Assembly (NCBI GenBank): GCA_035940575.1
Contig: DASZER010000016.1
Span: 18,258 to 82,257 of the forward strand
Length of the DNA: 64,000 nucleotides
Origin: Frankiaceae bacterium
GTDB taxonomy: Bacteria > Actinomycetota > Actinomycetes > BP-191
Direction of reading: 5' to 3'
Positions 1,754 through 55,514 of this stretch are shown one piece after another (the first letter of the stretch is position 1; every line of letters starts with the position of its first letter). The translations under genes and the position numbers were made by a program. The notes under the pieces are model-generated. The model was not told where the DNA came from and ran no database searches. It saw nothing but the letters and a program-made list of their open reading frames with translations.

Positions 1754-1788
1754 GGCTCCCAGCCTAGGGCGGCGGTAGCCTCGCGAGC

Positions 1789-3042: not shown

Positions 3043-3586
3043 GGACCGGCTGGACCAGCCGCGCGTCCTGCGCCGGGGCCTGCCGCGCCCGCACTACGAC
3101 CCGGACGCGTTCGGGCGGTTCTCGGAGACGATCGCGCGGTTCATCGGGACCGCGCGGTTCCTCGTCATCCAGACGATCATCTGCCTGCTCTGGGTCGGCT
3201 ACAACGGCTACTTCGGGCTGCAGGCGCACCGCGCGAACGAGGAGTGCCGCGACCTGCGCCGCGCCAGCCCGGCCGCCGAGTGCCGCGACGACAGGGACGT
3301 GTTCGACCCGTACCCGTTCATCCTGCTGACGCTCGCGCTGTCGCTGCAGGCGGCGTACGCCGCGCCGCTGATCCTGCTCGCGCAGAACCGCCAGGCCGAC
3401 CGAGACCGGGTCTCGATGGAGGAGGACAGGGCGCAGTACGCGCGCTCCGTCGCGGACACCGAGTACCTCACCCGCGAGGTCGCGGCCGTCCGCCTCGCCC
3501 TGGGCGACGTCGCGACCCGCGACTTCCTGCGCTCCGAGCTCGCGCGCCTCGCCGAGGACCTCAAGGACGACGACAGCGGCGCGTAG
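3029..3586 (+). CDS. DUF1003 family membrane protein
   Basis: 185 aa with two TM helices and a conserved charged C-terminal coil. Its start overlaps the end of the preceding MgtE_N/CBS gene, and this pairing is common. Confidence 0.7.
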   Translation: MARARDRLDQPRVLRRGLPRPHYDPDAFGRFSETIARFIGTARFLVIQTIICLLWVGYNGYFGLQAHRANEECRDLRRASPAAECRDDRDVFDPYPFILLTLALSLQAAYAAPLILLAQNRQADRDRVSMEEDRAQYARSVADTEYLTREVAAVRLALGDVATRDFLRSELARLAEDLKDDDSGA

Positions 3587-6974: not shown

Positions 6975-8176
6975 TGGGTCAGCCCGCGATCAGCGCGCGG
7001 GAGGTCAGCAAGCGGTTCCTCATCCACCGCAAGCGCGCGACGAGCCTCAAGGAACGCTTCATCAACCGCGGCGCGCAGGCCGAGGAGTTCTGGGCGGTCC
7101 GCGACCTCTCCCTCGACGTCGAGCCCGGCGAGACCGTCGGCCTCGTCGGCGCCAACGGCTCCGGCAAGTCGACGACGTTGAAGCTGCTCGCCGGCATCCT
7201 CCAGCCGACTTCGGGCACGGTCACCGTCAACGGCCGCATCGCGTCGCTGCTGGAGCTCGGCGCCGGCTTCAACGGCGAGCTCTCCGGCCGCGACAACGTC
7301 TACCTCAACGCCTCGCTGCTCGGCCTGTCGCGCAAGGAGGTGGACAGGCACTTCGACGACATCGTGGCGTTCAGCGAGCTGGCGCCGTTCATCGACAACC
7401 AGGTCAAGAACTACTCCTCGGGCATGTACGTCCGCCTCGGCTTCGCCGTCGCCGTGCACATCGACCCCGACATCCTGCTGGTGGACGAGGTGCTCGCGGT
7501 CGGCGACGAGGCGTTCCAGCGCAAGTGCCTCGACAAGATCGAGCAGTTCCAGCGCGACGGGCGCACGATCCTGTTCGTCTCGCACTCGCTGGAGCTGGTC
7601 GAGCAGATCTGCTCGCGCTCGGTCGTCCTCGACCACGGGCGCGTCCGCTACATCGGCGAGCCCGAGTTCGCGACCGGCACGCTGCGCGGCATCCTCGGCA
7701 CCGACAAGCCGCGCGAGACGGCGGTTCCCACGATCGTGGACGACCCGCGCGGCGGCGCGTACATCCACGGCGCGACCGTCAGCGACCGCCCGGGCGGCGA
7801 GCCGCGCAGCGACTTCTTCGGCGGCGAGCCGCTGTCGGTGCGCGTCGAGGTCGAGGTGCTCGACGGCACCGACCCGATCGGCGGCCAGGTGACGCTGATC
7901 GTGCTCGGCGCGGGCGACATCCCGATCTGGGTGATGGGCCAGGACGGCCGGGGCGTCGTCCCGCCGGTGCCGGGGCGCTACCACGTCGACTTCGTCGTGC
8001 CCGAGCTGCCGCCGGTCGTCGGGTCGTTCATCTTCGCGGTGTCGGTCAACGACCCCGACACCGACGACGTCCTCGCCCACGCGCGCTTCTACGAGACGCT
8101 GCACTTCAAGGGCAACACCAACCTCGGCATCGTGGACGTCCGCTACACGGCGGAGACGTGGCGGGCCGACGGGTGA
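6974..8176 (+). CDS. wzt: ABC transporter ATP-binding protein (Wzt/TagH/RfbE-like) with a C-terminal substrate-binding extension
   Basis: Walker A GANGSGKST, signature YSSGMYVRLGFAV, Walker B ILLVDE. A ~170-aa C-terminal extension resembles a Wzt_C carbohydrate-binding domain. The GTG start overlaps the permease stop. Confidence 0.85.
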   Translation: MGQPAISAREVSKRFLIHRKRATSLKERFINRGAQAEEFWAVRDLSLDVEPGETVGLVGANGSGKSTTLKLLAGILQPTSGTVTVNGRIASLLELGAGFNGELSGRDNVYLNASLLGLSRKEVDRHFDDIVAFSELAPFIDNQVKNYSSGMYVRLGFAVAVHIDPDILLVDEVLAVGDEAFQRKCLDKIEQFQRDGRTILFVSHSLELVEQICSRSVVLDHGRVRYIGEPEFATGTLRGILGTDKPRETAVPTIVDDPRGGAYIHGATVSDRPGGEPRSDFFGGEPLSVRVEVEVLDGTDPIGGQVTLIVLGAGDIPIWVMGQDGRGVVPPVPGRYHVDFVVPELPPVVGSFIFAVSVNDPDTDDVLAHARFYETLHFKGNTNLGIVDVRYTAETWRADG

Positions 8177-9453
8177 CCGCCCGCGCGACCGTCGTCGTCG
8201 TGAACTGGAACGGCGGCCACCTGCTCCCGCCCTGCCTCGACGCGCTGCGCGCGCAGGACGTCCAGGACTTCGAGACCGTCGTCGTGGACAACGCCTCCTC
8301 CGACGGCTCGGTCGAGATGCTGCGCCGCGACTACCCCGAGGTCCGCGTCGTCGAGACCGGCGCCAACCTCGGCTTCGCCGGCGGCAACAACGCGGCGCTG
8401 CGGACGTTCGCGACGCCCTACGCGGTGCTTCTCAACAACGACGCGGTCCCCGAGCCCTCGTGGCTGCGCAACACGCTCGACGCCTGCGCCGACGGCGTCG
8501 TCGTGACGCCGAAGATCGTGTTCCTGCCGCGCTTCGTGCGCCTCACGCTGACGACCGACGGGTTCGTCCCCGGCGGCGCGGACCCGCGCGAGCTCGGCGT
8601 GCGCATCCACGGCGTCCAGGTGGACGGCGCTCCCGCTCGTGCGCTCTGGGAGCGGCTGACGTACGGCGACGAGGGCGGCTACACGTGGACCCGCCCGAGC
8701 GGCGAGTGGCTGCTGCCGGTGGGGCGTTCGGTCACGCTCACCTGGGCCGCCGAGCGCGACAAGGACGTGACGATCGGGTGGCCCGGCGGCTCGGCGACGC
8801 TGCGCGTGACGGAGGCGGGGGGCGAGGCGACGTTCGCGCTGCCCGAGGACGTCGAGACCGTGGACGTCGTGAACAACGTCGGCGGCATCGTGACGACGCT
8901 GGGCTACGGCGCCGACCGCGGCTTCCAGGAGGTCGACGAGGGCCAGTACGACAAGCCGGAGGACGTGTTCACGTTCTGCGGCAACGGCGCGGCGTTCCCC
9001 CGCTCGGTGATCGAGAAGGTCGGGGTCTTCGACGACGACTTCTTCCTCTACTACGAGGACACCGACCTGTCGTGGCGTGTCCGCGCGGCCGGCTACGACA
9101 TCCGCTACGAGCCGACCGCCGTGCTGCGCCACCACCACAGCGCGAGCAGCGGCGAGGCGTCGTACGTCTTCCGGTTCCACGTCGACCGCAACCGGCTGCT
9201 GATGCTGACCAAGAACGCCACGTGGCGCCTCGCGCTGCCGCAGGTGCTCCGCTACCCGGTGACGACCGCGTCGATCGCGGTGCGCGCGGTGCGGACCCGC
9301 AACCGCGCGGCTCTCGCCGACACCAAGCGCCGCCTCCGCGTGATGGCGTCGTACCTGCGCCTGCTGCCCCGCATGCTCGCGCGCCGTCGCGCGGTCGAGC
9401 GCGTCGTGTCCCGGCGCGAGCTCGAGCGCCGGTGGCTGGTCGAGCACCGGTGA
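8173..9453 (+). CDS. Family 2 glycosyltransferase
   Basis: Starts TVVVVNWNGGHLLPPCLDALRAQDVQDFETVVVDNASSDGS and has the YYEDTDLSWR (DxD/ED) region. GTG start overlaps the wzt stop as GTGA. The 642-aa track ORF is over-extended. Confidence 0.8.
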   Translation: MTARATVVVVNWNGGHLLPPCLDALRAQDVQDFETVVVDNASSDGSVEMLRRDYPEVRVVETGANLGFAGGNNAALRTFATPYAVLLNNDAVPEPSWLRNTLDACADGVVVTPKIVFLPRFVRLTLTTDGFVPGGADPRELGVRIHGVQVDGAPARALWERLTYGDEGGYTWTRPSGEWLLPVGRSVTLTWAAERDKDVTIGWPGGSATLRVTEAGGEATFALPEDVETVDVVNNVGGIVTTLGYGADRGFQEVDEGQYDKPEDVFTFCGNGAAFPRSVIEKVGVFDDDFFLYYEDTDLSWRVRAAGYDIRYEPTAVLRHHHSASSGEASYVFRFHVDRNRLLMLTKNATWRLALPQVLRYPVTTASIAVRAVRTRNRAALADTKRRLRVMASYLRLLPRMLARRRAVERVVSRRELERRWLVEHR

Positions 9454-10508
9454 GGCTGGGGCTCGACGCGACGCCGCTGCTCGGGCAGCGCAGCGGCGTG
9501 GGGACGTACGTCGCCGGGCTGCTCTCCGGACTACGTCAGGTGACGCAGCCTCCCGAGGTCGTGCTGACGGCGTTCACCTGGCGCGGCACCGAAGGGCTGC
9601 CTGACGGGTACGCCCGGGGGCGACGCTTCCCCGCGCGCATCCTGCAGGAGGCGTGGATGCGCGCCGACGCGCCGCCGGTCGAGTGGCTGTCGGGGCGGGT
9701 GGACGTGTTCCACGCCACCAACTACGTGCTGCCGCCGTCACGCAAGGCGGCGGGCGTGCTGTCGGTGCACGACCTGTCGTACGAGCACCACGCCGACACG
9801 GTCACGGCAGCCACGCTGCGCTACCGGACGCTCGTGCCCCGCGCGCTACGTCGCGGGGCGTACGTCCTGGCGCTGACGGAGACCGTCGCGGGCGAGGTGC
9901 GCGACCACTACGACCTGCCCGCCGACCGGGTGGGGGTGGCGCGGCCGGGCGTGGACGAGGAGTGGTTCGCCCCCGCGGCGCGCCCGGCAGGGCTGCCTGA
10001 GGAGTACGTGCTGTTCGTCGGCAACCGCGAGCCGCGCAAGAACCTCCCCGTCCTCCTCGACGCGATGGCGCGGCTGTGGCCGAAGGTGCCGCCGCTCGTC
10101 CTCGTCGGCCCTTCGGGCTGGGGCCCCGCGCTCGACGCGTCGGGGCTGCCGCCTGAGGCGGTCGTGATCCCCGGCTACCTGTCGGAGGAGGCGCTGCGCG
10201 GCGCCGTCGCCGGGGCGAGCGCGCTGGCGTTCCCCTCGCGGTACGAGGGGTTCGGGCTGCCGCCGGTGGAGGCGTTCGCCTGCGGGACGCCGGTCGTGGC
10301 GAGCGACATCCCGGTGCTGCGCGAGGTGCTCGGGCCGCACGCGACATACGCCGCCGCGGGCGACGCGGAGGCGCTGGCGGCCGCGATCGCGGAGGCGCTG
10401 GACGCGCCGCCGACGTCCGCGGAGGCGCGGCGGGAGCACGCGCGGCAGTACACGTGGAGGCGTTGCGCGGCGGAGGCGATGGATGCGTACCTGCGAGCCC
10501 TACGATGA
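9450..10508 (+). CDS. Family 4 (GT-B) glycosyltransferase
   Basis: C-terminal GT1/GT4 signature (FPSRYEGFGLPPVEAFACGTPVV). GTG start overlaps the GT2 stop as GTGA. Confidence 0.8.
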   Translation: MRLGLDATPLLGQRSGVGTYVAGLLSGLRQVTQPPEVVLTAFTWRGTEGLPDGYARGRRFPARILQEAWMRADAPPVEWLSGRVDVFHATNYVLPPSRKAAGVLSVHDLSYEHHADTVTAATLRYRTLVPRALRRGAYVLALTETVAGEVRDHYDLPADRVGVARPGVDEEWFAPAARPAGLPEEYVLFVGNREPRKNLPVLLDAMARLWPKVPPLVLVGPSGWGPALDASGLPPEAVVIPGYLSEEALRGAVAGASALAFPSRYEGFGLPPVEAFACGTPVVASDIPVLREVLGPHATYAAAGDAEALAAAIAEALDAPPTSAEARREHARQYTWRRCAAEAMDAYLRALR

Positions 10509-10534
10509 CGCCCGTGATCGGCAGGTGAGCGACG

Positions 10535-12079
10535 ATGCGTAGGGCGGCGGTCTACAACCGCTTCTGGCACTCCATGGGCGGCGGCGAGCGCCACTCCGGC
10601 AAGATCGCCGAGGTGCTGGCCGCCGACGGGTGGCACGTCGACCTGATCGGCCACACCGACGTCGGCCGCGACAGCCTCGCCGACCACCTCGGGCTCGACC
10701 TCTCGGGTACCACGCTGCGGGTCGTCCCCGACAAGGGCGACGCGGCGCTGGTCGAGCTGTCGGAGGAGTACGACCTGTTCGTCAACGCGACGTTCATGTC
10801 GCGGCTCGCCCCGCGCGCCAAGCGCAACGTCTACCTCTGCTACTTCCCGACGCCGTTCGACTACAACGTCGAGCGCTGGCGCCAGGTCGTGCTCCGCCAC
10901 GTCGCCCCGCGCATCGCGCGCGGGCTGCCCGACCACCTGACGCACGGGCTCGGCTGGTACCCGCCCGAGGGCGGGCTGCGGCGGTCGTGGGTCTGGTCGC
11001 AGGGCGACGGCGTCGTCGTGATCCCGAGGGGCAGGCGCAAGAAGGTCTCGATGCTGCTCGGGCGCCCCGGTGGCGACCCGGTCGAGCTGACGTTGCGCGA
11101 CGGCGAGGGCACGGTGCTCGCGCGGGTGACCGTCACGCCCGACTTCCGCAAGCACACGTTCGACCTCGGCGCGGGCACCGACGGCATGGAGCTGCACTTC
11201 GTGTCGGAGACGTTCACCCCGGCGGTGAACGACAACCGCGACCTCGGCGTGGCCGTCTCGCGGCTGCGGCTCGTCGACGGCGACGGCGGGATGCGGTGGT
11301 ACGTCGTGCACCGGCTGCCGTGGCTCACGCTCGACCCGACGGACCTGTCGTTCCTGGAGTCGTACGACGAGGTGCTGGCGAACTCCGAGTACACGCGCGG
11401 CTGGATACAGAAGCTCTGGAAGCGCGACGCGGCGGTGCTGTTCCCGCCGATCCGCATCAACGACCTCGAGCCGTCGGCGACCCGCACGACGTCGATCGTC
11501 ACGGTCGGCCGGTTCTTCAGGCCGGGGCTCGGGCACGCCAAGCGGCAGCTCGAGATGGTGCGGATGTTCGGGGAGATGTACCGCGCGGGCGGGCTCGAGG
11601 GCTGGACGCTGCACGTCGTCGGCGGGTGCGAGCCGTCGCAGGTGCCGTACCTCGAGGAGGTCCGCGCGGCCGGCGCGGGGCTGCCCGTCGAGCTGCACCC
11701 GAACGCGCCCCGCTCGGAGGTCGAGCGGCTGCTGGACGAGGCCTCGGTGTTCTGGTCGGCGACGGGCTTCGGCGAGAACGAGGACAAGGCTCCGTGGGCG
11801 ATGGAGCACTTCGGCATGACGACCGTCGAGGCGATGGCGGGCGGCTGCGTGCCCGTTGTCATCGACCGCGCGGGGCAGCGCGAGATCGTGCGGCACGACG
11901 TGGACGGCTTCCGCTGGTCCACCCCGGCCGAGCTCGCGCAGTACACGCGGATGATCGCCTCCGACGACGCCCTGCGCGCGCGGCTCGCGGGCAGTGCCGT
12001 CAAGCGCGCGGCGGCGTTCTCCGAGGACGCGTTCGCGGAGCGCTGGCGTGAGATCGCGAAGGACCTCGGCCTCGGCTAG
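10535..12079 (+). CDS. Family 4 glycosyltransferase (large, 514 aa)
   Basis: C-terminal GT4 motif (EHFGMTTVEAMAGGCVPVVIDRAGQREIV). It is the last gene of the wzm-wzt-GT operon. Confidence 0.8.
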   Translation: MRRAAVYNRFWHSMGGGERHSGKIAEVLAADGWHVDLIGHTDVGRDSLADHLGLDLSGTTLRVVPDKGDAALVELSEEYDLFVNATFMSRLAPRAKRNVYLCYFPTPFDYNVERWRQVVLRHVAPRIARGLPDHLTHGLGWYPPEGGLRRSWVWSQGDGVVVIPRGRRKKVSMLLGRPGGDPVELTLRDGEGTVLARVTVTPDFRKHTFDLGAGTDGMELHFVSETFTPAVNDNRDLGVAVSRLRLVDGDGGMRWYVVHRLPWLTLDPTDLSFLESYDEVLANSEYTRGWIQKLWKRDAAVLFPPIRINDLEPSATRTTSIVTVGRFFRPGLGHAKRQLEMVRMFGEMYRAGGLEGWTLHVVGGCEPSQVPYLEEVRAAGAGLPVELHPNAPRSEVERLLDEASVFWSATGFGENEDKAPWAMEHFGMTTVEAMAGGCVPVVIDRAGQREIVRHDVDGFRWSTPAELAQYTRMIASDDALRARLAGSAVKRAAAFSEDAFAERWREIAKDLGLG

Positions 12080-12591
12080 CCCGTCACCTCGAACGGCGTG
12101 TAGTCGCAGGTCGCGGGTCGCGTGTAGAAGAAGTAGCGGCCGGGTGTCGTCGCTCCGCCTCCGACGTCCTGGATGGGGGCGAGCCGGCGCGGGACCGTCC
12201 AGGTGATGCGGAAGCGGCCGTTCGCGTCTTGGTGGAAGCGGCCCGGCATCGCACCCCCACGGGTGCCCGGCTCCCAACCCTCGTTCCTGAACGAGAGCGT
12301 GACATGGCCGTCGGCGGCCGGGCTGCAGCCGACGCCCTCGATCGTGACGACGGTGCCTTCCGGGCCGGAGGCGGGGCAGACGCGCATGTTCCGCGTGAGG
12401 CCGAGCGAGCAGCCCTCGCGCGGGAGCAGCGTCGGTGACGGTGCGGGCGACGGCGTGAGCCTCGCCGTCCTCAACGGCGCAGGGGAGGCGGTCCCTCGGC
12501 CGGACGGTGACGGTTCGACGCAGGCGACGGTGACGAGCGCGATCGCCACGGGCGCGACCCGCGCTACGACCGTCGTCATCGTGCCTGCCAT
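12076..12591 (-). CDS. Small secreted or lipoprotein-like hypothetical protein (paralog 1)
   Basis: 171 aa with a hydrophobic N-terminus, a Pro/Ser-rich linker, and a C-terminus CDYTPFEVTG. It shares ~60% identity and an identical 3' end with the next gene. Confidence 0.6.
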   Translation of the reverse strand: MAGTMTTVVARVAPVAIALVTVACVEPSPSGRGTASPAPLRTARLTPSPAPSPTLLPREGCSLGLTRNMRVCPASGPEGTVVTIEGVGCSPAADGHVTLSFRNEGWEPGTRGGAMPGRFHQDANGRFRITWTVPRRLAPIQDVGGGATTPGRYFFYTRPATCDYTPFEVTG

Positions 12592-12613
12592 CCGTAGAGG
12601 ACTCGCACTGTGG

Positions 12614-13108
12614 CTAGCCCGTCACCTCGAACGGCGCGAAGTCACATCCAGGCGGGTGCGACACGACGTAGTACGTGCCGGGGCGCACGGCGCCGCCGCC
12701 CTCGCCCTGGAGCGCGCCGATCTTGGCGGGGACGGTCCAGTCGAGGCGGAAGTAGCCACGGGCGTCGGCGGTCGCCGTCAGCAGCTCGGCGCCGCGCGTG
12801 CCCGGCGACCACCCCTCGTTGCGGAACGACACCTTGACGGTCGCCGACGGCGAGCACCCGACGCCCTCGATCGTGAGGGGCGTTCCGACGTGCCCCGAGG
12901 CGGGGCAGACGCGCAGGGTGCCGACCCGGGCCGCCGAGCAGCCACGGCGCGGGGGCAGCGTGCGCGCGGGCGCCGGCGGAGGCGCGTGCGTACGGACGGC
13001 CGGTGACGCTACGGGCGCCGCGAGCGGCGCGCCGTGCGGCGCCGCGCATCCCATCGCGGTCATGACGACGGCGACGGCGACGGCGAGCGCGAGCGTCGGT
13101 GTCGGCAC
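12614..13108 (-). CDS. Small secreted or lipoprotein-like hypothetical protein (paralog 2)
   Basis: 164 aa with the same architecture. RVCPASG, TIEGVGCSP and SFRNEGW are shared with paralog 1. Its C-terminus is CDFAPFEVTG. Confidence 0.6.
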   Translation of the reverse strand: MPTPTLALAVAVAVVMTAMGCAAPHGAPLAAPVASPAVRTHAPPPAPARTLPPRRGCSAARVGTLRVCPASGHVGTPLTIEGVGCSPSATVKVSFRNEGWSPGTRGAELLTATADARGYFRLDWTVPAKIGALQGEGGGAVRPGTYYVVSHPPGCDFAPFEVTG

Positions 13109-13126
13109 GCGGCCATTGTGCGCGCG

Positions 13127-15934
13127 CTACGGCACCGAGGGGCCGAGGACGGTCGACTTCGTCAGGTCGTCGGCGACGACGGGGATCGTCGGGACGGCGA
13201 CGAGGCCGAGGCGCTTGGTCGGGCCCGCAGGAACGGAGCGGCGTACGCCGTCCTGCACGAGCCAGCGCGAGCCGTCGGGCAGCCGCACCCACGCGCCGTC
13301 GGCGGGCGCGGCGAGCGGGCCGACGGGCAGCGCGAGGTCGGCGGCCGTGGCGGCCAGGGCGGGGCGCCCGAGGTAGGTGGAGACCAGCGACGCGGCCAGC
13401 GGCCGGCGCACGCCCGCGTCCAGCACCCACACCGACGTGCCGTCGGTGACGAGCGAGCCGGCCGGGTGGCGGGCGGCGTTCGACAGCGCCGCGCCCACGG
13501 GGAGCGAGCCGAAGTCGGACGGGCCGAGCGCGGGCAGCGACGCGGCGCCGTAGCCGAGCGCCTTGGCGGTCACGACGACGAGGCGGCCGTTGTCGACGAC
13601 GCGGACGACGCCGTCGGAGCCGCGCGCGGCGAGGCCGTTCGGCGGGACCCAGCGGGCGGTGACGAGCGAGTTCAGCTCGGTGCCGGCGGGCGCGACGGGC
13701 ACGCGCGGGTCGAGCGCGACGAGCGACGCGTCGATGACGCGGCGGGTGAGGCCGGTGATCTCGACGTACGACGCCGTCCCGGTGCGCAGCAGCGTTCCGG
13801 ACGGGTGCCTGTCCCCCACCGGCTCCCCGAGCGGCAGCGCGGCGAGGTCTTCGGCGGTCGCGACGACTGCGGACGTGAGGCCGAGGGGTGCCGTGCCGAC
13901 CGGGCGCCAGGCGCCGTTCGAGACGACGACGAACGACCCGTCGGCGCGCTTGAGCACGACGCCCTCCGGCGGGGCCAACGGCGCGCCCACCGGCAGCGCG
14001 AGGTCGGCCGGCTTGGCAGCGGCGACGGCGAGCGCCTTGGACCACGCGGTACGCGATACGGGCGACGTGAACGGCCGCCGCACGCCGGACTCGATCCGCC
14101 ACGCGCCCTCGGCGGTGGTGACGACGGTGCCGTCGGGGTGCGCGTCGTCGCGCGTCCACGGCGTGCCGACAGGGACGACGTCGAGAACGGCGTCGGGCAG
14201 CAGGCGGGCGGCGGAAAGGCCGAGCGCCGTGGCGACCGCCGACGTCACGGGACGGCGGGCGCCGTCCACGACGAGCCACGCGGCGCCGGCCGCGTTGCGG
14301 ACGTACATGCCGTCGCGCGGGCCGCTGAACGGCGCGCCGAGCGCCGCCTTCTGGCCCGGGTACGCGGGCAGCGGCGGCGCCTGCCGGATCGCCGACAGCA
14401 ACGCCGCCGACGCCGGGTACAGCCGCCCGCCCTCGACCACGGCGAACGGCACGCCGGACGAGCCGAGCGTGGCGCCGTTCGGGAGCGGGGAGACGACGTC
14501 GACCCGCTGCTTCCACGCGTACGCGCGGGTCGCGGCGTTCCACGACGACAGCGTCAGCTCGTAGCGGTCGGGGACGACGAGCGCGCCCGACGCGTCGCGC
14601 AGGTCCCACGTCGCGGCGAGCGCCGTGGACGTCGAGGTGCCCTTGTACGTGCGGAGGACGGTGCCGCGCGCGTCCCGGACGTCGAGCTGCCAGGACTGCG
14701 TGGCGGGCACGCCGGAGCGCACGGTGACGCCGGACGTGAGGTACATCGGCGTCGGGGTCGACACCGTCGGCGTGTACAGCGACGCGCCCATGAGGCTCTT
14801 GATCGCGGTACGGATCGACGGCAGCCGGTTGTACGTCTGCGTGCCCGGGCAGGCGGTGAGGCCGGCGTCACGGTGGCCGGAGACGTTGTTGAAGCGGACC
14901 TGCGTGCCGTTCTCGTACTTGGAGCCGCCGCGCGAGGTGAGGACGGTCGTCGCGAGCGGGTTCACGAAGTGCAGGGAGAACTTCCACGCGAACGTCCTCT
15001 GCACCGCCGCGAGCTGCGCGGACGAGGGCGCGACGGAGGAGTAGTTGCCGAGCAGCGAGACGCCGAACGTGTCGGTGTTGAACCCACCCGTGTGCGCGCC
15101 GATCACCGGGCGGTCGACGCCGCCGTAGCGGCCCTCGAACACGCGGCCGTACTTGTCGACGAGGAAGTTGTAGCCGATGTCGCTCCACCCGCGGCTCTGC
15201 GTGTGGAACGCGTAGACGCTGCGCACCATCGCCGCCGCCTGCGACGACGAGTACGAGTTCGACGTGTCGGTGTGGTGGACGAAGCCCATCCTGATGGTGT
15301 CCGAGTACGACGGCGTGCCGTCGCGCAGCGACTCGTCGGCGCCCCACTGCGCGCGCGTGACGATCGGCGGGCGGCCGACCGACGCCTCGGCGGACGCGCC
15401 GAAGACCGGCGAACGTCCCACGGCCGCGTCGGCGTCCGAACGTCCCGGGTCCACGAGCGACACCCGCACGTCGCGCGGCGCGTGGCCGCCCGCGACGGCG
15501 AGCCGTACCTGCCAGCCGTCCGAGGGGCCCGCGTACCAGGGCGCGGTGCCCGCGCGCTGACGGGCCGCCTCGGCGGCGTCGGGCTCGTGGTCGGGGTCGG
15601 CGTCGAGCGCGTGCCAGCCGGTCCAGCGGCCGTCCTGGCGGACCCGCGCCTCGACCCTCACGTCGCCGAGGCCGCGGTCGTGCGCCCACGTGACGCCGAG
15701 CGCCTCGAACCGTGCCGACCCGTTCTCCGCCGTGACCGCGAGCGGCCGGGTGGTGGAGGGCCCGGCGAAGCCGGCGCCGCGGCGTACGGCGGCGAGGTCG
15801 ACGCCGCGTACGGCGTGCTCCCGGACGGTGGGCGCGACGGGCCGCGGGCGGGCGGCGGGACGCGACATCACGGGCAGTGCCAGCGCGACCGGGGTCACGG
15901 ACAGGACGACGGCGGTCTTCAGCAGGCGGCGCAC
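13127..15934 (-). CDS. N-acetylmuramoyl-L-alanine amidase (Amidase_2/PGRP domain) with a long C-terminal repeat region
   Basis: 935 aa with a signal peptide. The catalytic region is RAQWGADESL, FVHHTDTSNSY, GWSDIGYNFLVDKYGRVFEGR and GAHTGGFNTDTFGVSLLGNY. It is followed by at least six degenerate ~60-aa repeats (VRRP..S...LG......DLALPVG.PL). Confidence 0.8.
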   Translation of the reverse strand: MRRLLKTAVVLSVTPVALALPVMSRPAARPRPVAPTVREHAVRGVDLAAVRRGAGFAGPSTTRPLAVTAENGSARFEALGVTWAHDRGLGDVRVEARVRQDGRWTGWHALDADPDHEPDAAEAARQRAGTAPWYAGPSDGWQVRLAVAGGHAPRDVRVSLVDPGRSDADAAVGRSPVFGASAEASVGRPPIVTRAQWGADESLRDGTPSYSDTIRMGFVHHTDTSNSYSSSQAAAMVRSVYAFHTQSRGWSDIGYNFLVDKYGRVFEGRYGGVDRPVIGAHTGGFNTDTFGVSLLGNYSSVAPSSAQLAAVQRTFAWKFSLHFVNPLATTVLTSRGGSKYENGTQVRFNNVSGHRDAGLTACPGTQTYNRLPSIRTAIKSLMGASLYTPTVSTPTPMYLTSGVTVRSGVPATQSWQLDVRDARGTVLRTYKGTSTSTALAATWDLRDASGALVVPDRYELTLSSWNAATRAYAWKQRVDVVSPLPNGATLGSSGVPFAVVEGGRLYPASAALLSAIRQAPPLPAYPGQKAALGAPFSGPRDGMYVRNAAGAAWLVVDGARRPVTSAVATALGLSAARLLPDAVLDVVPVGTPWTRDDAHPDGTVVTTAEGAWRIESGVRRPFTSPVSRTAWSKALAVAAAKPADLALPVGAPLAPPEGVVLKRADGSFVVVSNGAWRPVGTAPLGLTSAVVATAEDLAALPLGEPVGDRHPSGTLLRTGTASYVEITGLTRRVIDASLVALDPRVPVAPAGTELNSLVTARWVPPNGLAARGSDGVVRVVDNGRLVVVTAKALGYGAASLPALGPSDFGSLPVGAALSNAARHPAGSLVTDGTSVWVLDAGVRRPLAASLVSTYLGRPALAATAADLALPVGPLAAPADGAWVRLPDGSRWLVQDGVRRSVPAGPTKRLGLVAVPTIPVVADDLTKSTVLGPSVP

Positions 15935-32338: not shown

Positions 32339-32481
32339 CAGAGCGGCCAGATCGTCCGCTTCAGGTCCTGACCCCACGCCTCCCCCTCGCTGGCACACGA
32401 CCGTCACACAGAGGCGCGCCGACGACCAGTCCGACCAGTCCACGTCCTCGGCAGTGACAGGGCATCGTGGCCCTGCTCGAC

Positions 32482-33636
32482 CTACTTGAGGAGCTGTCGT
32501 GCCATCACGACGCGCTGGATCTGGTTGGTACCCTCGTAGATCTGCGTGATCTTCGCGTCGCGCATGAAGCGCTCCATCGGGTAGTCGGAGACGTACCCGT
32601 AGCCGCCGAGGAGCTGCACGCCGTCGGTCGTGACCTCCATCGCGACGTCGGAGGCGAAGCACTTCGCGGCCGCGCTGACGAACGTCAGGTCCGGCTCCAT
32701 GCGCTCGGCCTTGCCCGCCGCGACGTAGATGAGCTGGCGCGCGGCCTCGATCTTCATGGCCATGTCGGCGAGCATGAACTGCACGGCCTGGAACGTCGCG
32801 ATCGGCTTGCCGAACTGCGAGCGCTCCTTGACGTAGCCGAGCGCGTAGTCGAGCGACCCCTGCGCGATGCCGAGGGCCTGCGCGCCGATCGTCAGGCGCG
32901 TGTGGTCGAGCGTGCGCAGCGCGGTCTTGAAGCCGGTCCCCTCCTCGCCGATGATCCGGTCGGCCGGGATGCGGCAGTTGTCGAAGTACAGCTCGCCGGT
33001 GGGGCTGCCCTTGATGCCCATCTTCTTCTCGAGCTTGCCGACGCTGAAGCCGGGGTCGTCCTTCTCCACGACGAACGCGCTGATGCCGTTCGCGCCCTTC
33101 TCGGGGTCCGTGACCGCCATGACCGTGTAGTACGACGACACGCTCGCGTTGGTGATCCAGCGCTTGGAGCCGTTGAGGACGTACGAGTCGCCGTCGCGCA
33201 CCGCGCGCGTCTTCATCGACGCGGCGTCGGAGCCCGCCTCGGGCTCCGAGAGGGCGTAGCTGATCATGCCCTCGCCGCTCGCGACCTTGGGCAGGTAGCG
33301 GTGCTTGATGTCCTCGCCGCCCGACAGCAGCATGCCCTGGGTCCCGAGCTTGTTGACGGCCGGGATCAGCGACGACGCGGCGCAGACCCGCGCGACCTCC
33401 TCGATGAGGATCGCGCTGGAGATCGCGTCGGCGCCGGGGCCGCCGTACGCCTCGGGGACGTGGATCGCGAGCAGGTCGTTGCGCTTGAGCTCCTCGAACA
33501 CGTCCCACGGGAACTCGCCCGTCTCGTCGATCTGCGCGGCGCGCGGGCCGATCTTCGCCTCGGCCATGGCGCGGACGGACTTGCGGAGGAGGTCGTGCTC
33601 CTCGGCGAGGCGGTACGTGTCGAAGTCAGGGTTCAC
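32482..33636 (-). CDS. Acyl-CoA dehydrogenase
   Basis: 384-aa full-length ACAD with GGYGYVSDYPMERFMRDAKITQIYEGTNQIQR at the C-terminus. Confidence 0.9.
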   Translation of the reverse strand: MNPDFDTYRLAEEHDLLRKSVRAMAEAKIGPRAAQIDETGEFPWDVFEELKRNDLLAIHVPEAYGGPGADAISSAILIEEVARVCAASSLIPAVNKLGTQGMLLSGGEDIKHRYLPKVASGEGMISYALSEPEAGSDAASMKTRAVRDGDSYVLNGSKRWITNASVSSYYTVMAVTDPEKGANGISAFVVEKDDPGFSVGKLEKKMGIKGSPTGELYFDNCRIPADRIIGEEGTGFKTALRTLDHTRLTIGAQALGIAQGSLDYALGYVKERSQFGKPIATFQAVQFMLADMAMKIEAARQLIYVAAGKAERMEPDLTFVSAAAKCFASDVAMEVTTDGVQLLGGYGYVSDYPMERFMRDAKITQIYEGTNQIQRVVMARQLLK

Positions 33637-33747
33637 ACGGCCAATCGTAATGGCGCGCCGGTATGGCCCGGATTGGGCCGAACGCCCCCTTCAGTACGGC
33701 ACACGCGGACTATTCAGCCCCGGCGGGGACCCGACGATGACCACTCC

Positions 33748-36078
33748 GTGACCATCGAGGACTACGTCCCCCGGCACGCCGACGCGGCGCCGCCGCGGCG
33801 CCGGCGCCTGGGCGAGGTCCTGGTCGCCTCGGGCGTCATCACCGAGGCCGAGCTGAACGGCCTCCTCGCCGAGCAGGCGTCGCAGCCGCGCGAGCTCCGC
33901 AAGCGCCTCGGCGCGATGGTCGTCGAGAAAGGCATGGCCGCCGAGCGCGACATCGCGACGGCGCTGGCCGCCGTCATGGGCCTGGAGATGGTCGACGTCG
34001 CGCGCCTCGGCGTCGCGCCCGCGGCCGCCAGGCTGATCCCGCGCGCGGTCGCCGAGCGCTACGCCGTCCTCGGCGTCGCGTACGCCGAGGGCCGCCTCAC
34101 GCTCGCGATGGCCGACCCGACCGACGTCGTCGCGCTGGACGACGTACGCCTCTACACCAAGGCCCGCACGATCGTCACGGTCGTCGCGACCGAGGGCGCT
34201 ATCCGCGAGCACCTCGCCCGCGCGTGGAGCCTCGAGGAGGACGCGTCCGACGTCGCCGGCATGTTCGAGGCGCTGGAGGAGCAGGCGCCCGAGGAGGACG
34301 ACGACAACGACGCCGAGTCGACCCCCACGGTCAAGCTCGTCAACGTCATCCTCTCCGACGCCGTCCACGCCCGCGCCTCGGACATCCACCTGCAGCCCGA
34401 GCTCGACGGCCTGCGCGTCCGCTACCGCGTGGACGGCCTGCTGCGCGACGTCATGACGGTGCCGCGCAGCGCGGTCGCCTCCGTCACGAGCCGCGTCAAG
34501 ATCATGTCGGGCCTCGACATCGCCGAGCGCCGCCGCCCGCAGGACGGCCGTACGCGGCTGTCGGTCGACGGCGACCAGATCGACGCGCGCATCTCGACGC
34601 TGCCCTCGATGCACGGCGAGAAGGTCGTCATCCGCCTGCTCGCCCGCGGCGAGGGCGTGCTGCCGCTGTCGCGCGTCGGGTTCAGCGAGCGGCAGATGGA
34701 CGCGATCCTCGACGCGCTCGTCGCGCCGCAGGGCCTCGTCCTCATCACCGGCCCGACCGGCTCGGGCAAGACGTCGACGCTGTACTCCGCGATGACGCAG
34801 ATGCGTACGCCCGACCGCAACATCGTCACGCTCGAGGACCCCGTCGAGGTCCAGCTCCGCGGCATCACGCAGGTCCAGACGAACGAGCGCGCGGGCCTGA
34901 CGTTCGCGGCCGGCCTGCGGTCCGTGCTGCGCCAGGACCCCGACGTCATCCTCGTCGGCGAGATCCGCGACAGCGAGACCGCCGAGCTGGCGCTGCGCGC
35001 GTCGCTGACCGGCCACGTCGTCTTCTCGACCCTGCACACGAACGACGCCTCCGCGGCCGTCACCCGCCTGGTCGACATGGGCATCGAGCCGTTCCTCATC
35101 GCGTCGTCGCTGACGCTCGTCGTCGCGCAGCGGCTCGTCCGCGTGCCGTGCTCGCACTGCGCCTCGCCGTACACGCCGAGCCCGCGCACGCTCCAGCTCC
35201 TCGGCCTCACCGAGTCCGACCTCGCCGGCGCCACCGTCGTGCGCGGCCGCGGCTGCGAGCAGTGCGGCCAGACCGGCTACCTCGGCCGCACCGCGATCTT
35301 CGAGGTGCTGCCCGTCGACCAGTCGCTGCGCGCGGTGCTGACGTCGCGACCCACCGAGAACGCGATCCGCGAGGCCGCGCGCGCGGCCGGCGTGGCGTCG
35401 TTGCGCGGCGACGGCGTCGCCCGCGCGCTGCGCGGCGAGACGACGCTCGAGGAGGTGCTGCGCGTCACGCAGGTCGACCACTCCGCGACCGGCAACCACT
35501 GCCCCACGTGCGACCGCTCGCTCGAGGAGGACATGGCGTTCTGCCCGTGGTGCGCGGCCTCCGTCGGGCGCCATGCGTGCGCCGGCTGCTCGCGCAGGCT
35601 CGACGCCGAGTGGCGCGTCTGCCCGTGGTGCCGTACCGCCGCCGGCGGCACGGTCGCGGCCGCCCCTGCCGAGGAGCCCGAACGCGCCCGTCCCCGCATC
35701 CTCGTGGTGGACGACGACGAGCACGTGCTCGACTTCGTGGAGGCGGCGCTCGTCGACATCTGCGACGTCGTCCGCGCGCGCAGCGCGGAGGAGGCGCTGC
35801 GCGCCGCCGCCACCGAGGACGTCGCGGCGATGGTGCTCGACCTCGTGCTGCCCGACCTGTCGGGCGTCGAGGTCACGAGGCTGCTGCGCGCCGACGCGCG
35901 GACCGCGCTGATCCCGTTGCTGCTGCTGACCGGCACGGACGACCCGCTGATGCGCACCGAGGCGTCGACGGCCGGCGCGGACCTGTACCTGTCGAAGCCG
36001 ATCGAGCCCGCCGCCCTCGAGGCCGCGGTCTGCCTGCTGCTGGAGCGCGCCGCCCTCGCCCCCGAGACCGCCCCCTAG
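33748..36078 (+). CDS. GspE/PilB-family secretion ATPase with an MshEN-type N-terminal domain, two extra zinc ribbons and a C-terminal response-regulator receiver (REC) domain
   Basis: GTG start at 33748. The N-terminus (RLGEVLVASGVITEAELNGLLAEQ) matches the MshEN c-di-GMP-binding motif. The GspE core has Walker A GPTGSGKTSTLY, TLEDPVE, and RQDPDVILVGEIRD..TA..A..A..TGHVVFSTLHTN, plus the canonical tetracysteine CSHC...CEQC. Beyond that there are two further CxxC...CPWC ribbons, then a REC domain with all key residues (VVDDDE, LDLVLPD, LLLTG, LSKP). Confidence 0.8.
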   Translation: MTIEDYVPRHADAAPPRRRRLGEVLVASGVITEAELNGLLAEQASQPRELRKRLGAMVVEKGMAAERDIATALAAVMGLEMVDVARLGVAPAAARLIPRAVAERYAVLGVAYAEGRLTLAMADPTDVVALDDVRLYTKARTIVTVVATEGAIREHLARAWSLEEDASDVAGMFEALEEQAPEEDDDNDAESTPTVKLVNVILSDAVHARASDIHLQPELDGLRVRYRVDGLLRDVMTVPRSAVASVTSRVKIMSGLDIAERRRPQDGRTRLSVDGDQIDARISTLPSMHGEKVVIRLLARGEGVLPLSRVGFSERQMDAILDALVAPQGLVLITGPTGSGKTSTLYSAMTQMRTPDRNIVTLEDPVEVQLRGITQVQTNERAGLTFAAGLRSVLRQDPDVILVGEIRDSETAELALRASLTGHVVFSTLHTNDASAAVTRLVDMGIEPFLIASSLTLVVAQRLVRVPCSHCASPYTPSPRTLQLLGLTESDLAGATVVRGRGCEQCGQTGYLGRTAIFEVLPVDQSLRAVLTSRPTENAIREAARAAGVASLRGDGVARALRGETTLEEVLRVTQVDHSATGNHCPTCDRSLEEDMAFCPWCAASVGRHACAGCSRRLDAEWRVCPWCRTAAGGTVAAAPAEEPERARPRILVVDDDEHVLDFVEAALVDICDVVRARSAEEALRAAATEDVAAMVLDLVLPDLSGVEVTRLLRADARTALIPLLLLTGTDDPLMRTEASTAGADLYLSKPIEPAALEAAVCLLLERAALAPETAP

Positions 36079-52577: not shown

Positions 52578-55514
52578 ATGCGCCTGTTCACCCGGCGGTC
52601 CGCCGCCGTCACCGCCGCGATCCTCCTCGCGGTGGGCGTCGCCGTACCGCCCGCGACCGCGGGAGCGGGTCCGGCCGTCATCGACGACCACGACTCGCAC
52701 ATCGCGCCGCGCGCGTTCGACGTGTTCTCGTCGACCGGCGGCACCGTCTACGCCACCGACAACGGCGGGTTCGGGCGCGTCTACCTGGCCCCCGGCACGA
52801 TGACGACGGCCACGTCGACCGTCGACCTCGGCCCGCGCCCGCGGACGTTCACCCCGACGACGATCAGCGGCAGCCGCATCGCGATGCCGGTGGCCGGCGC
52901 GCAGTTCGACACGCCGATCACGCAGGTGCGCTCGTGCCTGATCGGCACGTGCCCGACGCTGTCGACGCTGACGATCCCGGCCGGCTGGGTGTACGCCGGC
53001 AACGCCGAGGACCGCGCGGTGATCTACCACAAGGCCACGAACAACCTCGGCCTCATCGGCTGGACCGGCGGCTCGGTCACCAACCAGTGGCTCATGCCGG
53101 CCGACTACTCCGACGACGACGAGCCGCCCACGGCGCGCGGCGACGCGACCGGCATCGCCGTCTCCGGCGGCGGTGACGTGACGTACGTCAACCGCGCGGC
53201 CGCGAGCGGAGCGGGCACCGTCCACTACCTCGGCGACGGGACGGGCGCCGTCCTCACGCCGACGTACGTCGTCTGGTACATCGTCGGCGTCGTCGAGCCC
53301 GACTTCGACCAGACGCACGTCTACCGCGTGCTGCGCTCGACCACCGAGCCGAACCCGACGCCGGCGCTCGTCCGCGCGCTGACCGACGCTCCGATCGAGG
53401 ACCTCGTCGCCAACGACTTCGGCGTCGCGTACACGATCCCGAGCGACGCCGGGGACGGCACGTCGGCGCTGTGGACCATGGCGTACGACGGCACGCCCGT
53501 GCAGTACGCCCGCCCGCTGACGACGAACGCGCTGGCGCCGTTCCTCGCGACCAACCAGATCCTCATCAACGACCGCCTCGCCGGCATGCCCGGCTTCTAC
53601 AAGGTGACGCCGGGCTCGTACAGCGGCTCCTTGACGGGCCTCGTGCCGGTCCGCGGCGCGAACACGTTCTCGGTCGGCGTCTCCCACGGCCGCGCCGTCT
53701 ACGCCGACGACATGACGGCCGACCTCCCGCTGTTCACGCGCACCGTGACCGACGGCCTCCCGGGTCCGGAGTCGCTCGTCACCGGCGCGACCGCCGGCCA
53801 GGTCGCGATCTCCGGCCCGTACGTCGCGTACTTCCGGTACAACGCGGACCCGTCGAAGATGGACGTCGTCTACGGCCGCCTCGACGGCGCCATGAAGACG
53901 ACGACGGTGCCGATGAGCGAGAGCGGCAAGGTCGCGCTCTCCGGCCGCCGGGTGCTCGTCACCGGCGGCGCGCGCACGCGCGTCATCGACGCCGAGACGC
54001 AGGCGGTGACCGACCTCGGCCACACGTACGCGGCGATCTTCGGCGAGTACGTCGCGATGATCAGCTACGACACCGCGGCCGTCACGCGTCGCAACCTCGA
54101 CAACGGCACGGTCCAGACCGTCCGCGCGGCCGTCCCCGGTTGCGTGTCGCCCTGCGTCGACGACGACAACTGGGCGCTCGCGGCGTGGGGCCACGAGGTC
54201 GTGTACGCGTTCGGTCACCAGGGCACCGTCCCCGACCACGTCGCCGGCCTCTGGAACGGCAACACCAACGCGACGACCGCGATGCCGATGCTCAGCGACG
54301 CCGAGGGCGCGCTGTACACCGAGGTCGCGTACTGGTCGGGCCTGCTGCTCGTGGCCCGCAACAACGCGAGCGTCCGCCTCTACGACATGCGCAACGCCGC
54401 CACCGAGAGCATCGTCGACACGTTCGCCGAGGAGCCGTTCGCGCTCGACGGCAACGTCGTCGCGTGGCGGCCGCTGTCGGACCTCAAGGCCGTCGTCCGC
54501 GACGTCCGCGACTTCGTGCCCGGCCACACGCCGGCGCTGCGCTACCTCGGCGGCGGCGTGCCCACGGCGTTCGGCACCGACGCGGCGCCGGAGTGGGACG
54601 CGAGGCTCCTGCTCTCGCAGAACATGACCGGCGGCACGCTCACGATCCACTCCGGCAGCACGTCCGGGCCGGTCGTGAAGTCGATCCCGGTCAGCACGCT
54701 CAACGGCGAGATCAGCACGACCTGGGACGGCACGGACGGCGAGGACGCCGACGTGGCGCAGGGCACGTACTACTGGACGCTGGAGAGCGGCGGCGCCGCG
54801 CCCGCGCCGGTGCTGCGCGCCAACGGCTCGTCGCCCGTCAGCGGCTCGATCTTCGTCAGCCGCACGGCGCTCGCCGCGCCGTCGCTCACCGCGCCGGCGC
54901 TGTCGACGGACGTCACGCCGTCGACGACGTTCCCGGTGTCGTGGACGCCTCCGGCGGGCGCGCCGGCGGGCACGCGGTACCGCCTCGAGCGGTCCATCAA
55001 CGGCGGCGCGTTCGGCCTCGCGACGACGACCGGCGCCCTGTCGGTCGCGTACGGCGGCTCGCCCGGCACGACGTACCGCTTCCGCGTCGCGGCGGTCGAC
55101 CCGGCCGGTCGCATCGGCGCGTTCAGCTCGGTGCGGACGACCGTGGTGCCGTACCAGGACAACGCGACCGGCACCGTCTACACCGGCTCGTGGGCGACCG
55201 GCTCCGGCGGGTCGTTCTACGGCGGCTCGCACCGCTACAGCGGCACGGCGGGCTCGACGTACACGTTCAAGGCGACGGGCACCACGATCTGGCTGGTCGG
55301 CACGAAGTCGACGAACTACGGCCAGTTCCAGGTCTCGATCGACGGCGGCGCGTACTCCGGCCTCATCGACTCGTACGCCTCGTCGGTGCAGTACCGCAAG
55401 GTGCTGTACGGCGTGGGCCGCCTGTCGAACACCGCGCACACGATCCGCGTCCGCGTCTACGGCACCAGCCGCAGGCCGTACGTCGGCATCGACGGCGTGG
55501 GCTTCCTCCGCTAG
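52578..55514 (+). CDS. Large secreted protein (978 aa) with a fibronectin type III domain and a C-terminal beta-rich domain
   Basis: Signal peptide MRLFTRRSAAVTAAILLAVGVAVPPATA. The composition is Thr/Ser/Gly/Tyr-rich and not Arg-rich. An FN3-like segment spans aa 760-840. The 1144-aa antisense ORF is Arg/Asp/Gly-rich and has no recognisable domain. Confidence 0.6.
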   Translation: MRLFTRRSAAVTAAILLAVGVAVPPATAGAGPAVIDDHDSHIAPRAFDVFSSTGGTVYATDNGGFGRVYLAPGTMTTATSTVDLGPRPRTFTPTTISGSRIAMPVAGAQFDTPITQVRSCLIGTCPTLSTLTIPAGWVYAGNAEDRAVIYHKATNNLGLIGWTGGSVTNQWLMPADYSDDDEPPTARGDATGIAVSGGGDVTYVNRAAASGAGTVHYLGDGTGAVLTPTYVVWYIVGVVEPDFDQTHVYRVLRSTTEPNPTPALVRALTDAPIEDLVANDFGVAYTIPSDAGDGTSALWTMAYDGTPVQYARPLTTNALAPFLATNQILINDRLAGMPGFYKVTPGSYSGSLTGLVPVRGANTFSVGVSHGRAVYADDMTADLPLFTRTVTDGLPGPESLVTGATAGQVAISGPYVAYFRYNADPSKMDVVYGRLDGAMKTTTVPMSESGKVALSGRRVLVTGGARTRVIDAETQAVTDLGHTYAAIFGEYVAMISYDTAAVTRRNLDNGTVQTVRAAVPGCVSPCVDDDNWALAAWGHEVVYAFGHQGTVPDHVAGLWNGNTNATTAMPMLSDAEGALYTEVAYWSGLLLVARNNASVRLYDMRNAATESIVDTFAEEPFALDGNVVAWRPLSDLKAVVRDVRDFVPGHTPALRYLGGGVPTAFGTDAAPEWDARLLLSQNMTGGTLTIHSGSTSGPVVKSIPVSTLNGEISTTWDGTDGEDADVAQGTYYWTLESGGAAPAPVLRANGSSPVSGSIFVSRTALAAPSLTAPALSTDVTPSTTFPVSWTPPAGAPAGTRYRLERSINGGAFGLATTTGALSVAYGGSPGTTYRFRVAAVDPAGRIGAFSSVRTTVVPYQDNATGTVYTGSWATGSGGSFYGGSHRYSGTAGSTYTFKATGTTIWLVGTKSTNYGQFQVSIDGGAYSGLIDSYASSVQYRKVLYGVGRLSNTAHTIRVRVYGTSRRPYVGIDGVGFLR

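Follow-up and report, generated by a model that had tools for sequence, protein, structure and literature searches.

A PilB-type ATPase with an N-terminal MshEN-type domain and a C-terminal receiver domain in a Frankiaceae bacterium

The ATPase-REC gene and its domains

The gene described here lies in a 64,000-nucleotide stretch of DNA from a Frankiaceae bacterium (assembly GCA_035940575.1, contig DASZER010000016.1, positions 18,258 to 82,257 of the forward strand), which is called the window throughout. It encodes a secretion ATPase in which four parts follow one another in a single polypeptide: an MshEN domain, a PilB-type T2SSE ATPase core, a double zinc ribbon (DZR) and a receiver domain (REC). 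The N-terminal segment is a real MshEN-type domain, and the architecture suggests an ATPase under the control of two signals, cyclic di-GMP (c-di-GMP) and phosphorylation. The features of the gene are collected in Table 1.

Translation begins at a GTG codon at 33748 and ends at a stop codon at 36076-36078. The product is identical to NCBI entry HEV2889496.1, 'ATPase, T2SS/T4P/T4SS family [Frankiaceae bacterium]', which derives from a metagenome-assembled genome (MAG). A stop-free mechanical open reading frame (ORF) of 1203 residues (32467..36078) was considered as the gene and rejected, because its upstream 1.3 kb (32467-33747) overlies a gene on the opposite strand, an acyl-CoA dehydrogenase gene at 32482..33636 that lies beneath the first third of the ORF. 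The window has a G+C content of 73%; the upstream extension is a high-GC artefact and GTG 33748 is the true start. A scan for promoter and terminator consensus sequences around the ATPase-REC gene found nothing.

Pfam matches run along the 776-residue protein with E-values of 3.4e-15 for MshEN, 4.1e-130 for T2SSE, 3.2e-07 for DZR and 9.9e-19 for Response_reg. The core is a PilB-type (type IV pilus extension-like) ATPase with its catalytic elements intact: Walker A GPTGSGKT (residues 335-342), the Asp box LEDPVE (362-367), Walker B DPDVILVGEIRD (397-408), the His box TGHVVFSTLHT (421-431) and a tetracysteine zinc site formed by C468, C471, C503 and C506. Its nearest solved relatives are the type IVa pilus extension ATPases PilF and PilB, with GspE behind them, and it scores under the NCBIfam equivalog cut-offs of both PilB (TIGR02538, 573 vs 675.65 bits) and GspE (TIGR02533, 561.8 vs 630.25 bits). 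The double zinc ribbon joins the ATPase to REC through four CxxC pairs, whose eight cysteines are invariant in an alignment of 81 homologues at 56-85% identity, the family set used throughout; it is modelled with a moderate predicted local distance difference test score (pLDDT) of 60-78. In the full-length AlphaFold2 (AF2) model the individual domains are confident, but a predicted template modelling score (pTM) of 0.57 is too low for their arrangement relative to one another to be read.

Table 1. Features of the ATPase-REC gene, in window coordinates, and predicted ligand contacts transferred from V. cholerae MshE (VcMshE)
Feature	Coordinates	Strand	Basis or remark
Whole gene: MshEN - T2SSE (PilB-type ATPase) - double zinc ribbon - REC	33748..36078	+	Translation, 776 aa
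Basic run R17-R19, directly before motif I	33796..33804	+	R18 = R in 80/81, R19 in 74/81
MshEN motif I, aa 20-43, RLGEVLVASGVITEAELNGLLAEQ, helices alpha1 + alpha2	33805..33876	+	Exact regex match
Inter-motif spacer, aa 44-52, ASQPRELRK, 9 residues	33877..33903	+	Canonical length 5
MshEN motif II, aa 53-76, RLGAMVVEKGMAAERDIATALAAV, helices alpha3 + alpha4	33904..33975	+	Degenerate at positions 11, 12, 17, 24
MshEN_C (T2SSE_N1) alpha/beta subdomain, aa 78-159	33979..34224	+	Pfam PF05157, profile positions 2-83 of 90
T2SSE ATPase core, aa 189-572	34312..35463	+	Pfam T2SSE 434 bits; motif scan
Double zinc ribbon, aa 581-628: CPTC, CPWC, CAGC, CPWC	35488..35631	+	Pfam DZR and DUF7575
REC, aa 651-761	35698..36030	+	Pfam PF00072 Response_reg 68 bits vs cut-off 30.2
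Predicted contacts R20/L21/G22			From VcMshE R9/L10/G11
Predicted contacts L36/L40/Q43			From VcMshE L25/L29/Q32
Predicted contacts R53/L54/G55			From VcMshE R38/L39/G40
Predicted contacts I69/L73/V76			From VcMshE L54/L58/Q61

The N-terminal segment is an MshEN domain

A first-pass annotation of the window, made from the sequence alone, had proposed an MshEN-type c-di-GMP-binding motif at the N-terminus of this protein, and homology and fold both establish the segment as a true MshEN domain. Pfam PF05157 scores 56.3 bits (cut-off 23.1), its match being confined to the C-terminal subdomain, residues 78-159. A phmmer search of residues 1-161 against PDB sequences extends the homology to the N-domains of T. 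thermophilus PilF (3.5e-27), with its GSPII domains, Geobacter PilB (about 1e-19), M. xanthus PilB and V. cholerae MshE, structure 5HTL (1.4e-11). The NCBIfam model of NfrB also aligns with residues 16-189 at an E-value of 5.2e-16.

The AF2 model of residues 1-166, built with the 81 homologues, is confident (pLDDT 92.1, pTM 0.82). It places helices at residues 21-28, 33-44, 54-60 and 66-77, followed by an alpha/beta subdomain of strands and helices; residues 20-77 make up the four-helix bundle that constitutes MshEN_N. The best Foldseek match of this model in the PDB is 5htl_B, MshE with c-di-GMP, at an E-value of 7.9e-9, a target-normalised template modelling (TM) score of 0.78 and 28% identity.

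Two motifs and a long spacer

The MshEN consensus, written as RLG..[LVI][LVI]..G[LVI][LVI]....L...L..Q and checked against its published definition (PMC5013675), is matched exactly by motif I, which satisfies 11/11 constrained positions of the 24 residues. The claim that residues 20-43 agree with the motif at every constrained position is thereby borne out, and the interval assigned to the site, 33805-33975, covers precisely the two motifs and the spacer between them. Given the amino acid composition of the protein, the full motif is expected by chance about 5e-8 times per protein and about 8e-6 times over the six frames of the window. In a six-frame translation of the window, neither the full motif nor its RLGxxhhxxG core was found anywhere but at motif I. 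The basic run directly before it is the counterpart of the positive patch K5/R7 of VcMshE (PMC5013675).

A second, related half-motif had also been described. The second copy is present, and it is a full 24-residue motif rather than half of one, with a strict match at 7/11 constrained positions (R, L, G, V, V, G and L21). It deviates at M63, A64, I69 and V76, the last standing where the terminal Gln is expected; M63 and I69 are conservative changes, and A64 and V76 are true departures from the consensus. The canonical spacer between the motifs is 5 residues long and gives a 53-residue binding unit (PMC5013675). 'Near-perfect' is therefore a fair description of motif I and not of the complete site, which is non-canonical in its 9-residue spacer and in lacking a second Gln.

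HMMER alignment with the VcMshE N-domain recovers two segments of VcMshE, 6-LRKRLGDLLVEEGIVSEAQLEQALN-30 and 37-RRLGDTLISLGFLSETQLLNFLAQQ-61, from which the contacts in Table 1 are transferred. Eleven of the 12 contact positions are kept or conservatively replaced, and the Gln of motif II is lost. A further PilB-like gene, found in a Phycisphaerae MAG (L062), has the motif II LLGEILIELGMASEDQVVEALAEA and a 7-residue spacer. This motif II resembles that of the actinobacterial clade ('G-M/L-A-S/T ... ALAEA', without the terminal Gln), and on this sequence the Gln-less form may perhaps not be confined to one phylum.

The predicted pocket is strongly conserved among the 81 homologues. G22, Q43 and G55 are invariant, R20 is Arg in 79/81, and the leucines L40 (77/81), L54 (79/81) and L73 (80/81) are nearly so. 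R53 is Arg in 74 members and Lys in the remaining 7, and position 69 is Val or Ile throughout. In the spacer, R51 is kept in 80/81.

The receiver domain

The C-terminal receiver on the T2SSE ATPase, another element of the first-pass annotation, stands: its Pfam score lies above the cut-off and its phospho-acceptor pocket is complete. All five active-site residues are present, namely the acidic pair D656/D657, the phospho-acceptor D698 (nucleotides 35839-35841), T728 and K750. Each is conserved in 97-100% of the homologues (D698 and K750 in 81/81, D656 and T728 in 80, D657 in 79), and the domain is modelled with a pLDDT of 86-98 per 10-residue block, mostly above 93. From these residues REC looks like a functional phospho-receiver and not a pseudo-receiver.

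Partner genes were sought in about 40 window ORFs by Pfam, in the gene tables of five relatives (within 10 kb on either side) and by tblastn over nine loci. Neither the scanned ORFs of the window nor the related loci yielded a HisKA/HATPase_c gene, and REC is in this sense an orphan receiver. D698 is presumably phosphorylated by an unlinked histidine kinase.

Predicted binding of c-di-GMP

The conserved residues of the N-domain point to specific binding of c-di-GMP, which is probable. Residue-for-residue transfer from the description of 5HTL suggests that the MshEN domain most likely takes one c-di-GMP. One guanine would be held by R20/L21/G22 together with I69/L73 and the other by R53/L54/G55 together with L36/L40, while Q43 would hydrogen-bond the ribose-phosphate. 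If the domain binds, its affinity is expected by analogy to fall below that of a full-consensus site, because motif II ends in Val or Ala instead of Gln and the spacer has 9-10 residues. The analogy with VcMshE Q61A suggests a loss of about one order of magnitude relative to the full consensus, and probably an affinity in the high-nanomolar to low-micromolar range.

Substitutions in characterised domains show how much such a site tolerates. VcMshEN Q61A still binds 1:1, with a dissociation constant (Kd) of 5.9 uM, 11.8-fold weaker; L29V is 4-fold weaker and G11L abolishes binding. Replacing Leu by Ile at positions 17/21 of motif II weakens binding 2.4-fold in a resurrected PilF domain, and eliminating c-di-GMP binding in NfrB and MshE takes more than one substitution. 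PilF GSPII-C, a c-di-GMP binder, also has 'GLA' at positions 10-12 of motif II.

Several observations weigh against an ATPase controlled by c-di-GMP and phosphorylation. Position 76 is Ala in 63 members of the family, Val in 8, Ser in 4 and Thr in 3, and Gln in 0/81; the spacer, flanked by Q43 and R53 at the edge of the pocket, has 9 or 10 residues in 81/81. Among 64 PilB-like ATPases of other phyla recovered in this analysis, the spacer is 5 residues in 59/64 (range 4-7) and the terminal Gln of motif II is present in 51/64, so that the long spacer and the absent Gln are derived traits fixed in this clade. Spacers of 7 residues occur in PilF GSPII-C and Geobacter PilB, and a characterised MshEN binder with a spacer of 9-10 residues was not found in the literature. 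PilF GSPII-A, whose motif I is good but whose motif II is degenerate, is a non-binder and stays inactive even with its consensus fully restored (PMC12002112), and the third MshEN domain of D. geothermalis shows no detectable c-di-GMP binding. The fold does not help: PilF GSPII-A (9G1W), XpsE (2D28) and the Xanthomonas PilB N-domain (7LKM) score about as well as 5HTL in Foldseek. Because non-binders score like 5HTL, the fold confirms family membership and says nothing on ligand competence, and fold comparison was set aside as uninformative for separating binders from non-binders. By Pfam, the roughly 40 window ORFs include no PilC/GspF, PilM, pilin, histidine kinase or GGDEF/EAL gene, and pilus and kinase genes are absent within 10 kb on either side in the five relatives. 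The machine driven by the ATPase is not encoded nearby.

Alternative explanations

The composition of the 776-residue protein, with 9.7% Arg, 11.7% Leu and 25.4% Leu, Val and Ile together, would be the natural ground for regarding the motif match as a coincidence in a high-GC sequence rich in Leu, Val, Gly and Arg. Chance is excluded by the expected number of matches and the six-frame scan, by the separate homology and fold evidence for a real domain, and by the retention of the motif in >100 homologues; its probability is negligible. An account that deserves more attention keeps the MshEN fold and gives up the ligand: the domain would be a protein-docking platform and the ATPase would have a single input, through REC. 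PilF GSPII-A, the XpsE N-domain and the PilZ-binding Xanthomonas PilB N-domain are precedents, and the clade-wide loss of the motif-II Gln, the 9-10-residue spacer at the pocket, the listing of Q61V among the changes of the non-binder XpsE, the structural nearness of non-binders to the AF2 model and the failure of consensus restoration in GSPII-A all agree with it. The non-binders, however, have lost far more than a Gln. XpsE carries G11V, I19R, L29R, R38G, G40L, L54H, L58C and Q61V, and GSPII-A carries S39, A41, H33 and R62, whereas here only the Gln position is lost and both Gly-3, both Arg-1 and the Leu clusters are 90-100% conserved. At 56-85% identity, such conservation of ligand contacts is hard to account for without a ligand, and Q61A by itself still binds in VcMshE. 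GSPII-A regained binding only with the further removal of a helix extension stabilised by an N-cap and of a lock between the subdomains (PMC12002112). A block of this kind is not predicted here, because P15-P16 precede motif I and helix alpha1 begins at residue 21 in the AF2 model. Loss of binding is thus rather unlikely.

Two further alternatives concern the identity of the signals. The remodelled pocket, with its long spacer containing R51 and Ala or Val in place of Gln, could bind cGAMP, c-di-AMP, pGpG or a similar ligand, or c-di-GMP at another stoichiometry; both derived features are clade-specific and fixed, and R51 is kept in all but one of the homologues. Against this, guanine is recognised specifically through the backbone amides of Gly-3 and of the residue after it (PMC5013675), both motifs keep these residues intact, and no precedent of altered specificity for MshEN was found in the literature; another ligand or stoichiometry is highly improbable. 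REC, for its part, could be a pseudo-receiver or a structural appendage, in which case phosphorylation would exert no control and there would be no second input. Pseudo-receivers are common, the N-terminal REC of DrdR being an example, and neither the window nor the 10 kb on either side of the gene in five relatives contains a histidine kinase gene. Yet orphan receivers with unlinked kinases are also common, the Pfam score is far over the gathering threshold, and D656, D657, D698, T728 and K750 are present and almost unvaried, so that a degenerate receiver is improbable.

Genomic context and distribution

Gene tables of the five relatives and tblastn over the nine loci show that the synteny around the gene is conserved. 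Eight related loci share a fixed order: PhzF(-), MgtE_N-CBS(+), DUF1003(+), ATPase-REC(+), MarR(-), YceI and Mrp. The loci with gene tables continue with TatB, HtrA, an RseB-like gene, an anti-sigma gene and SigE. The PhzF/MgtE_N-CBS/DUF1003 trio lies <100 bp to about 1.7 kb upstream of ATPase-REC in these relatives (L001, L002, L004, L005, L016 and L083-L085). In this window, the PhzF(-)/MgtE_N-CBS(+)/DUF1003(+) trio is found at 881-3586, about 30 kb from the ATPase gene.

The block of about 30 kb contains mostly genes for the cell envelope and for CoA metabolism, among them an ABC ATPase, GT1, a 935-residue Amidase_2 protein, sugar-nucleotide enzymes, LytR-CpsA-Psr, a CoA-transferase, an extracytoplasmic function (ECF) sigma factor and the acyl-CoA dehydrogenase. 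It shows no tRNA, no G+C or compositional anomaly and no sign of a mobile element. The acyl-CoA dehydrogenase of the window is about 34% identical to those upstream in the relatives. Two large ORFs of the window are weakly annotated, one at 13127-15934 for the 935-residue protein with the Amidase_2 domain and one at 52578-55514 for a 978-residue protein with weak FlgD_ig/fn3 matches.

No GGDEF motif was found in any of the six frames of the window. In two relatives, a large PAS-GGDEF-EAL gene precedes ATPase-REC by 6-9 kb (L084 897-3491 and L085 1181-4021), so enzymes of c-di-GMP turnover exist in the clade.

The MshEN-T2SSE-(DZR)-REC architecture recurs in >100 homologues, all from metagenomes or MAGs labelled Frankiaceae, Frankiales, Mycobacteriales or Actinomycetota. 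A pattern-limited search of GTDB representative genomes found the fused family in uncultured MAGs only, a search of a kind from which cultured members cannot be excluded. Apparent full-length fusions in Margulisiibacteriota (L033) and Omnitrophota (L064) were rejected, as they are separate, adjoining REC genes. The Margulisiibacteriota MAG encodes, at 9983-13269, a stand-alone REC, then MshEN-T2SSE, then a T2SSF platform gene; the Omnitrophota MAG has, at 6573-9289, a 286-residue REC-containing protein after MshEN-T2SSE. A REC gene beside MshEN-T2SSE in these two loci supports a functional coupling of REC and ATPase. In the Actinomycetota MAG MFD02581 (L016 10019-11846), the homologue matches in three frames, its REC part is apparently absent and Mrp follows almost directly; this copy may be frameshifted, truncated or the product of an assembly error.

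A secretion ATPase with two inputs

Taken together, these data present, with moderate confidence, a PilB-type hexameric secretion ATPase that carries two sensory modules, one for c-di-GMP and one for phosphorylation. The identity of the domains and the intact receiver are observed, and dual-input control of the ATPase by the two signals is probable. Both inputs would modulate ATPase activity, the state of the hexamer or the engagement of partners.

Another reading starts from the neighbourhood. Because the gene stands as an orphan in a conserved PhzF/MgtE_N-CBS/DUF1003 ... SigE neighbourhood of envelope-stress genes in 8/8 related loci, with no pilus genes near, the motor may have a role outside the pilus, and the remodelled pocket (the spacer with R51, and Ala or Val for Gln) may, in addition or instead, alter ligand sensing. 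The protein could then be a c-di-GMP- and phosphorylation-gated ATPase for another envelope process of these uncultured Frankiales-like actinobacteria. Little credence is given to this proposal.

If both inputs of the dual-control reading are real, the protein would be a compact model for how two unrelated signals, received by a single polypeptide, gate a secretion or pilus motor ATPase. It would also be a model for the extent to which the MshEN pocket tolerates a longer spacer and the loss of a Gln, which would refine the rules by which c-di-GMP receptors are predicted, and it would bring a c-di-GMP effector to light in a little-studied, uncultured lineage of actinobacteria. The gain is incremental: MshEN on PilB-like ATPases and fusions of MshEN with REC are already documented, and nothing is overturned.

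Comparison with known systems

V. cholerae MshE (5HTL) is the prototype among the c-di-GMP receptors of the T2SSE ATPases. Both proteins carry the domain at the N-terminus of a PilB/GspE-type ATPase and share its two-subdomain fold; motif I is identical at every constrained position, the R/L/G residues and Leu clusters are present in both motifs, and the 'LRKRLG' that precedes motif I of VcMshE recurs here ahead of motif II. The proteins also differ. The spacer is 5 residues in MshE and 9 here, Gln61 is replaced by Val (Ala in most of the clade), positions 11-12 of motif II are F-L in MshE and M-A here, and position 17 is Leu in MshE and Ile or Val here. MshE has neither a C-terminal zinc ribbon nor a REC and, unlike the protein described here, is encoded in the msh pilus operon.

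T. thermophilus PilF, with its domains GSPII-A, -B and -C (9G1W, 8PDK and 6F8L), is the best full-length PDB match, and its N-domains are homologous and likewise attached to a PilB-type ATPase. The motif I/II segment of GSPII-C aligns best with the N-subdomain here, sharing 'GLA' in motif II and having a longer, 7-residue spacer that contains Pro-Arg, and GSPII-B shows that c-di-GMP can be bound at 6 nM without Arg. PilF differs in its three tandem GSPII domains, in the absence of REC and in having no 9-10-residue spacer. E. coli NfrB shows, with a Kd of about 1 uM, that MshEN can place another output under c-di-GMP control. In contrast to the protein here, NfrB has a glycosyltransferase as its output and carries MshEN at the C-terminus, with a fully conserved motif.

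Receivers that act on pilus motors are also known. The Xanthomonas protein DrdR, described as a REC-only protein, binds PilB/PilT and raises ATPase activity (PMC13507683), and cyanobacterial PATAN-REC regulators of the PixG/PixH type are likewise described as placing a type IV pilus motor ATPase under receiver control through direct contact. These regulators are separate proteins that work in trans, whereas the receiver here is fused in cis. It would be an in-cis version of the stand-alone REC regulators that act on PilB elsewhere, and by analogy an in-cis equivalent of DrdR is plausible.

The combination of domains has its own precedents. MshEN was defined on the T2SSE ATPase family (Wang et al. 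2016, PMC5013675), and Supplementary Table 4 of that study lists REC-MshEN-T2SSE (in proteobacteria), MshEN-REC and MshEN-T2SSE-cNMPbind, with Geobacter metallireducens Gmet_3473 as an example of the first and Desulfotalea DP2226 of the last. The order MshEN-T2SSE-zinc ribbon-REC is not in that table, and literature searches found no paper describing an MshEN-T2SSE-REC fusion and no experimental work on REC-MshEN-T2SSE-type fusions. The Gmet_3473 type likewise unites REC, MshEN and T2SSE in one polypeptide, and the DP2226 type likewise places its second regulatory domain at the C-terminus. Here REC is C-terminal and attached through a conserved double zinc ribbon, whereas it is N-terminal in REC-MshEN-T2SSE, and the lineage is one of uncultured Frankiales-like Actinomycetota instead of Proteobacteria. 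The novelty first attached to an MshEN-REC dual-input ATPase was therefore overstated: a secretion ATPase with two inputs is a concept already catalogued, and the protein described here is a lineage-specific form of that known design.

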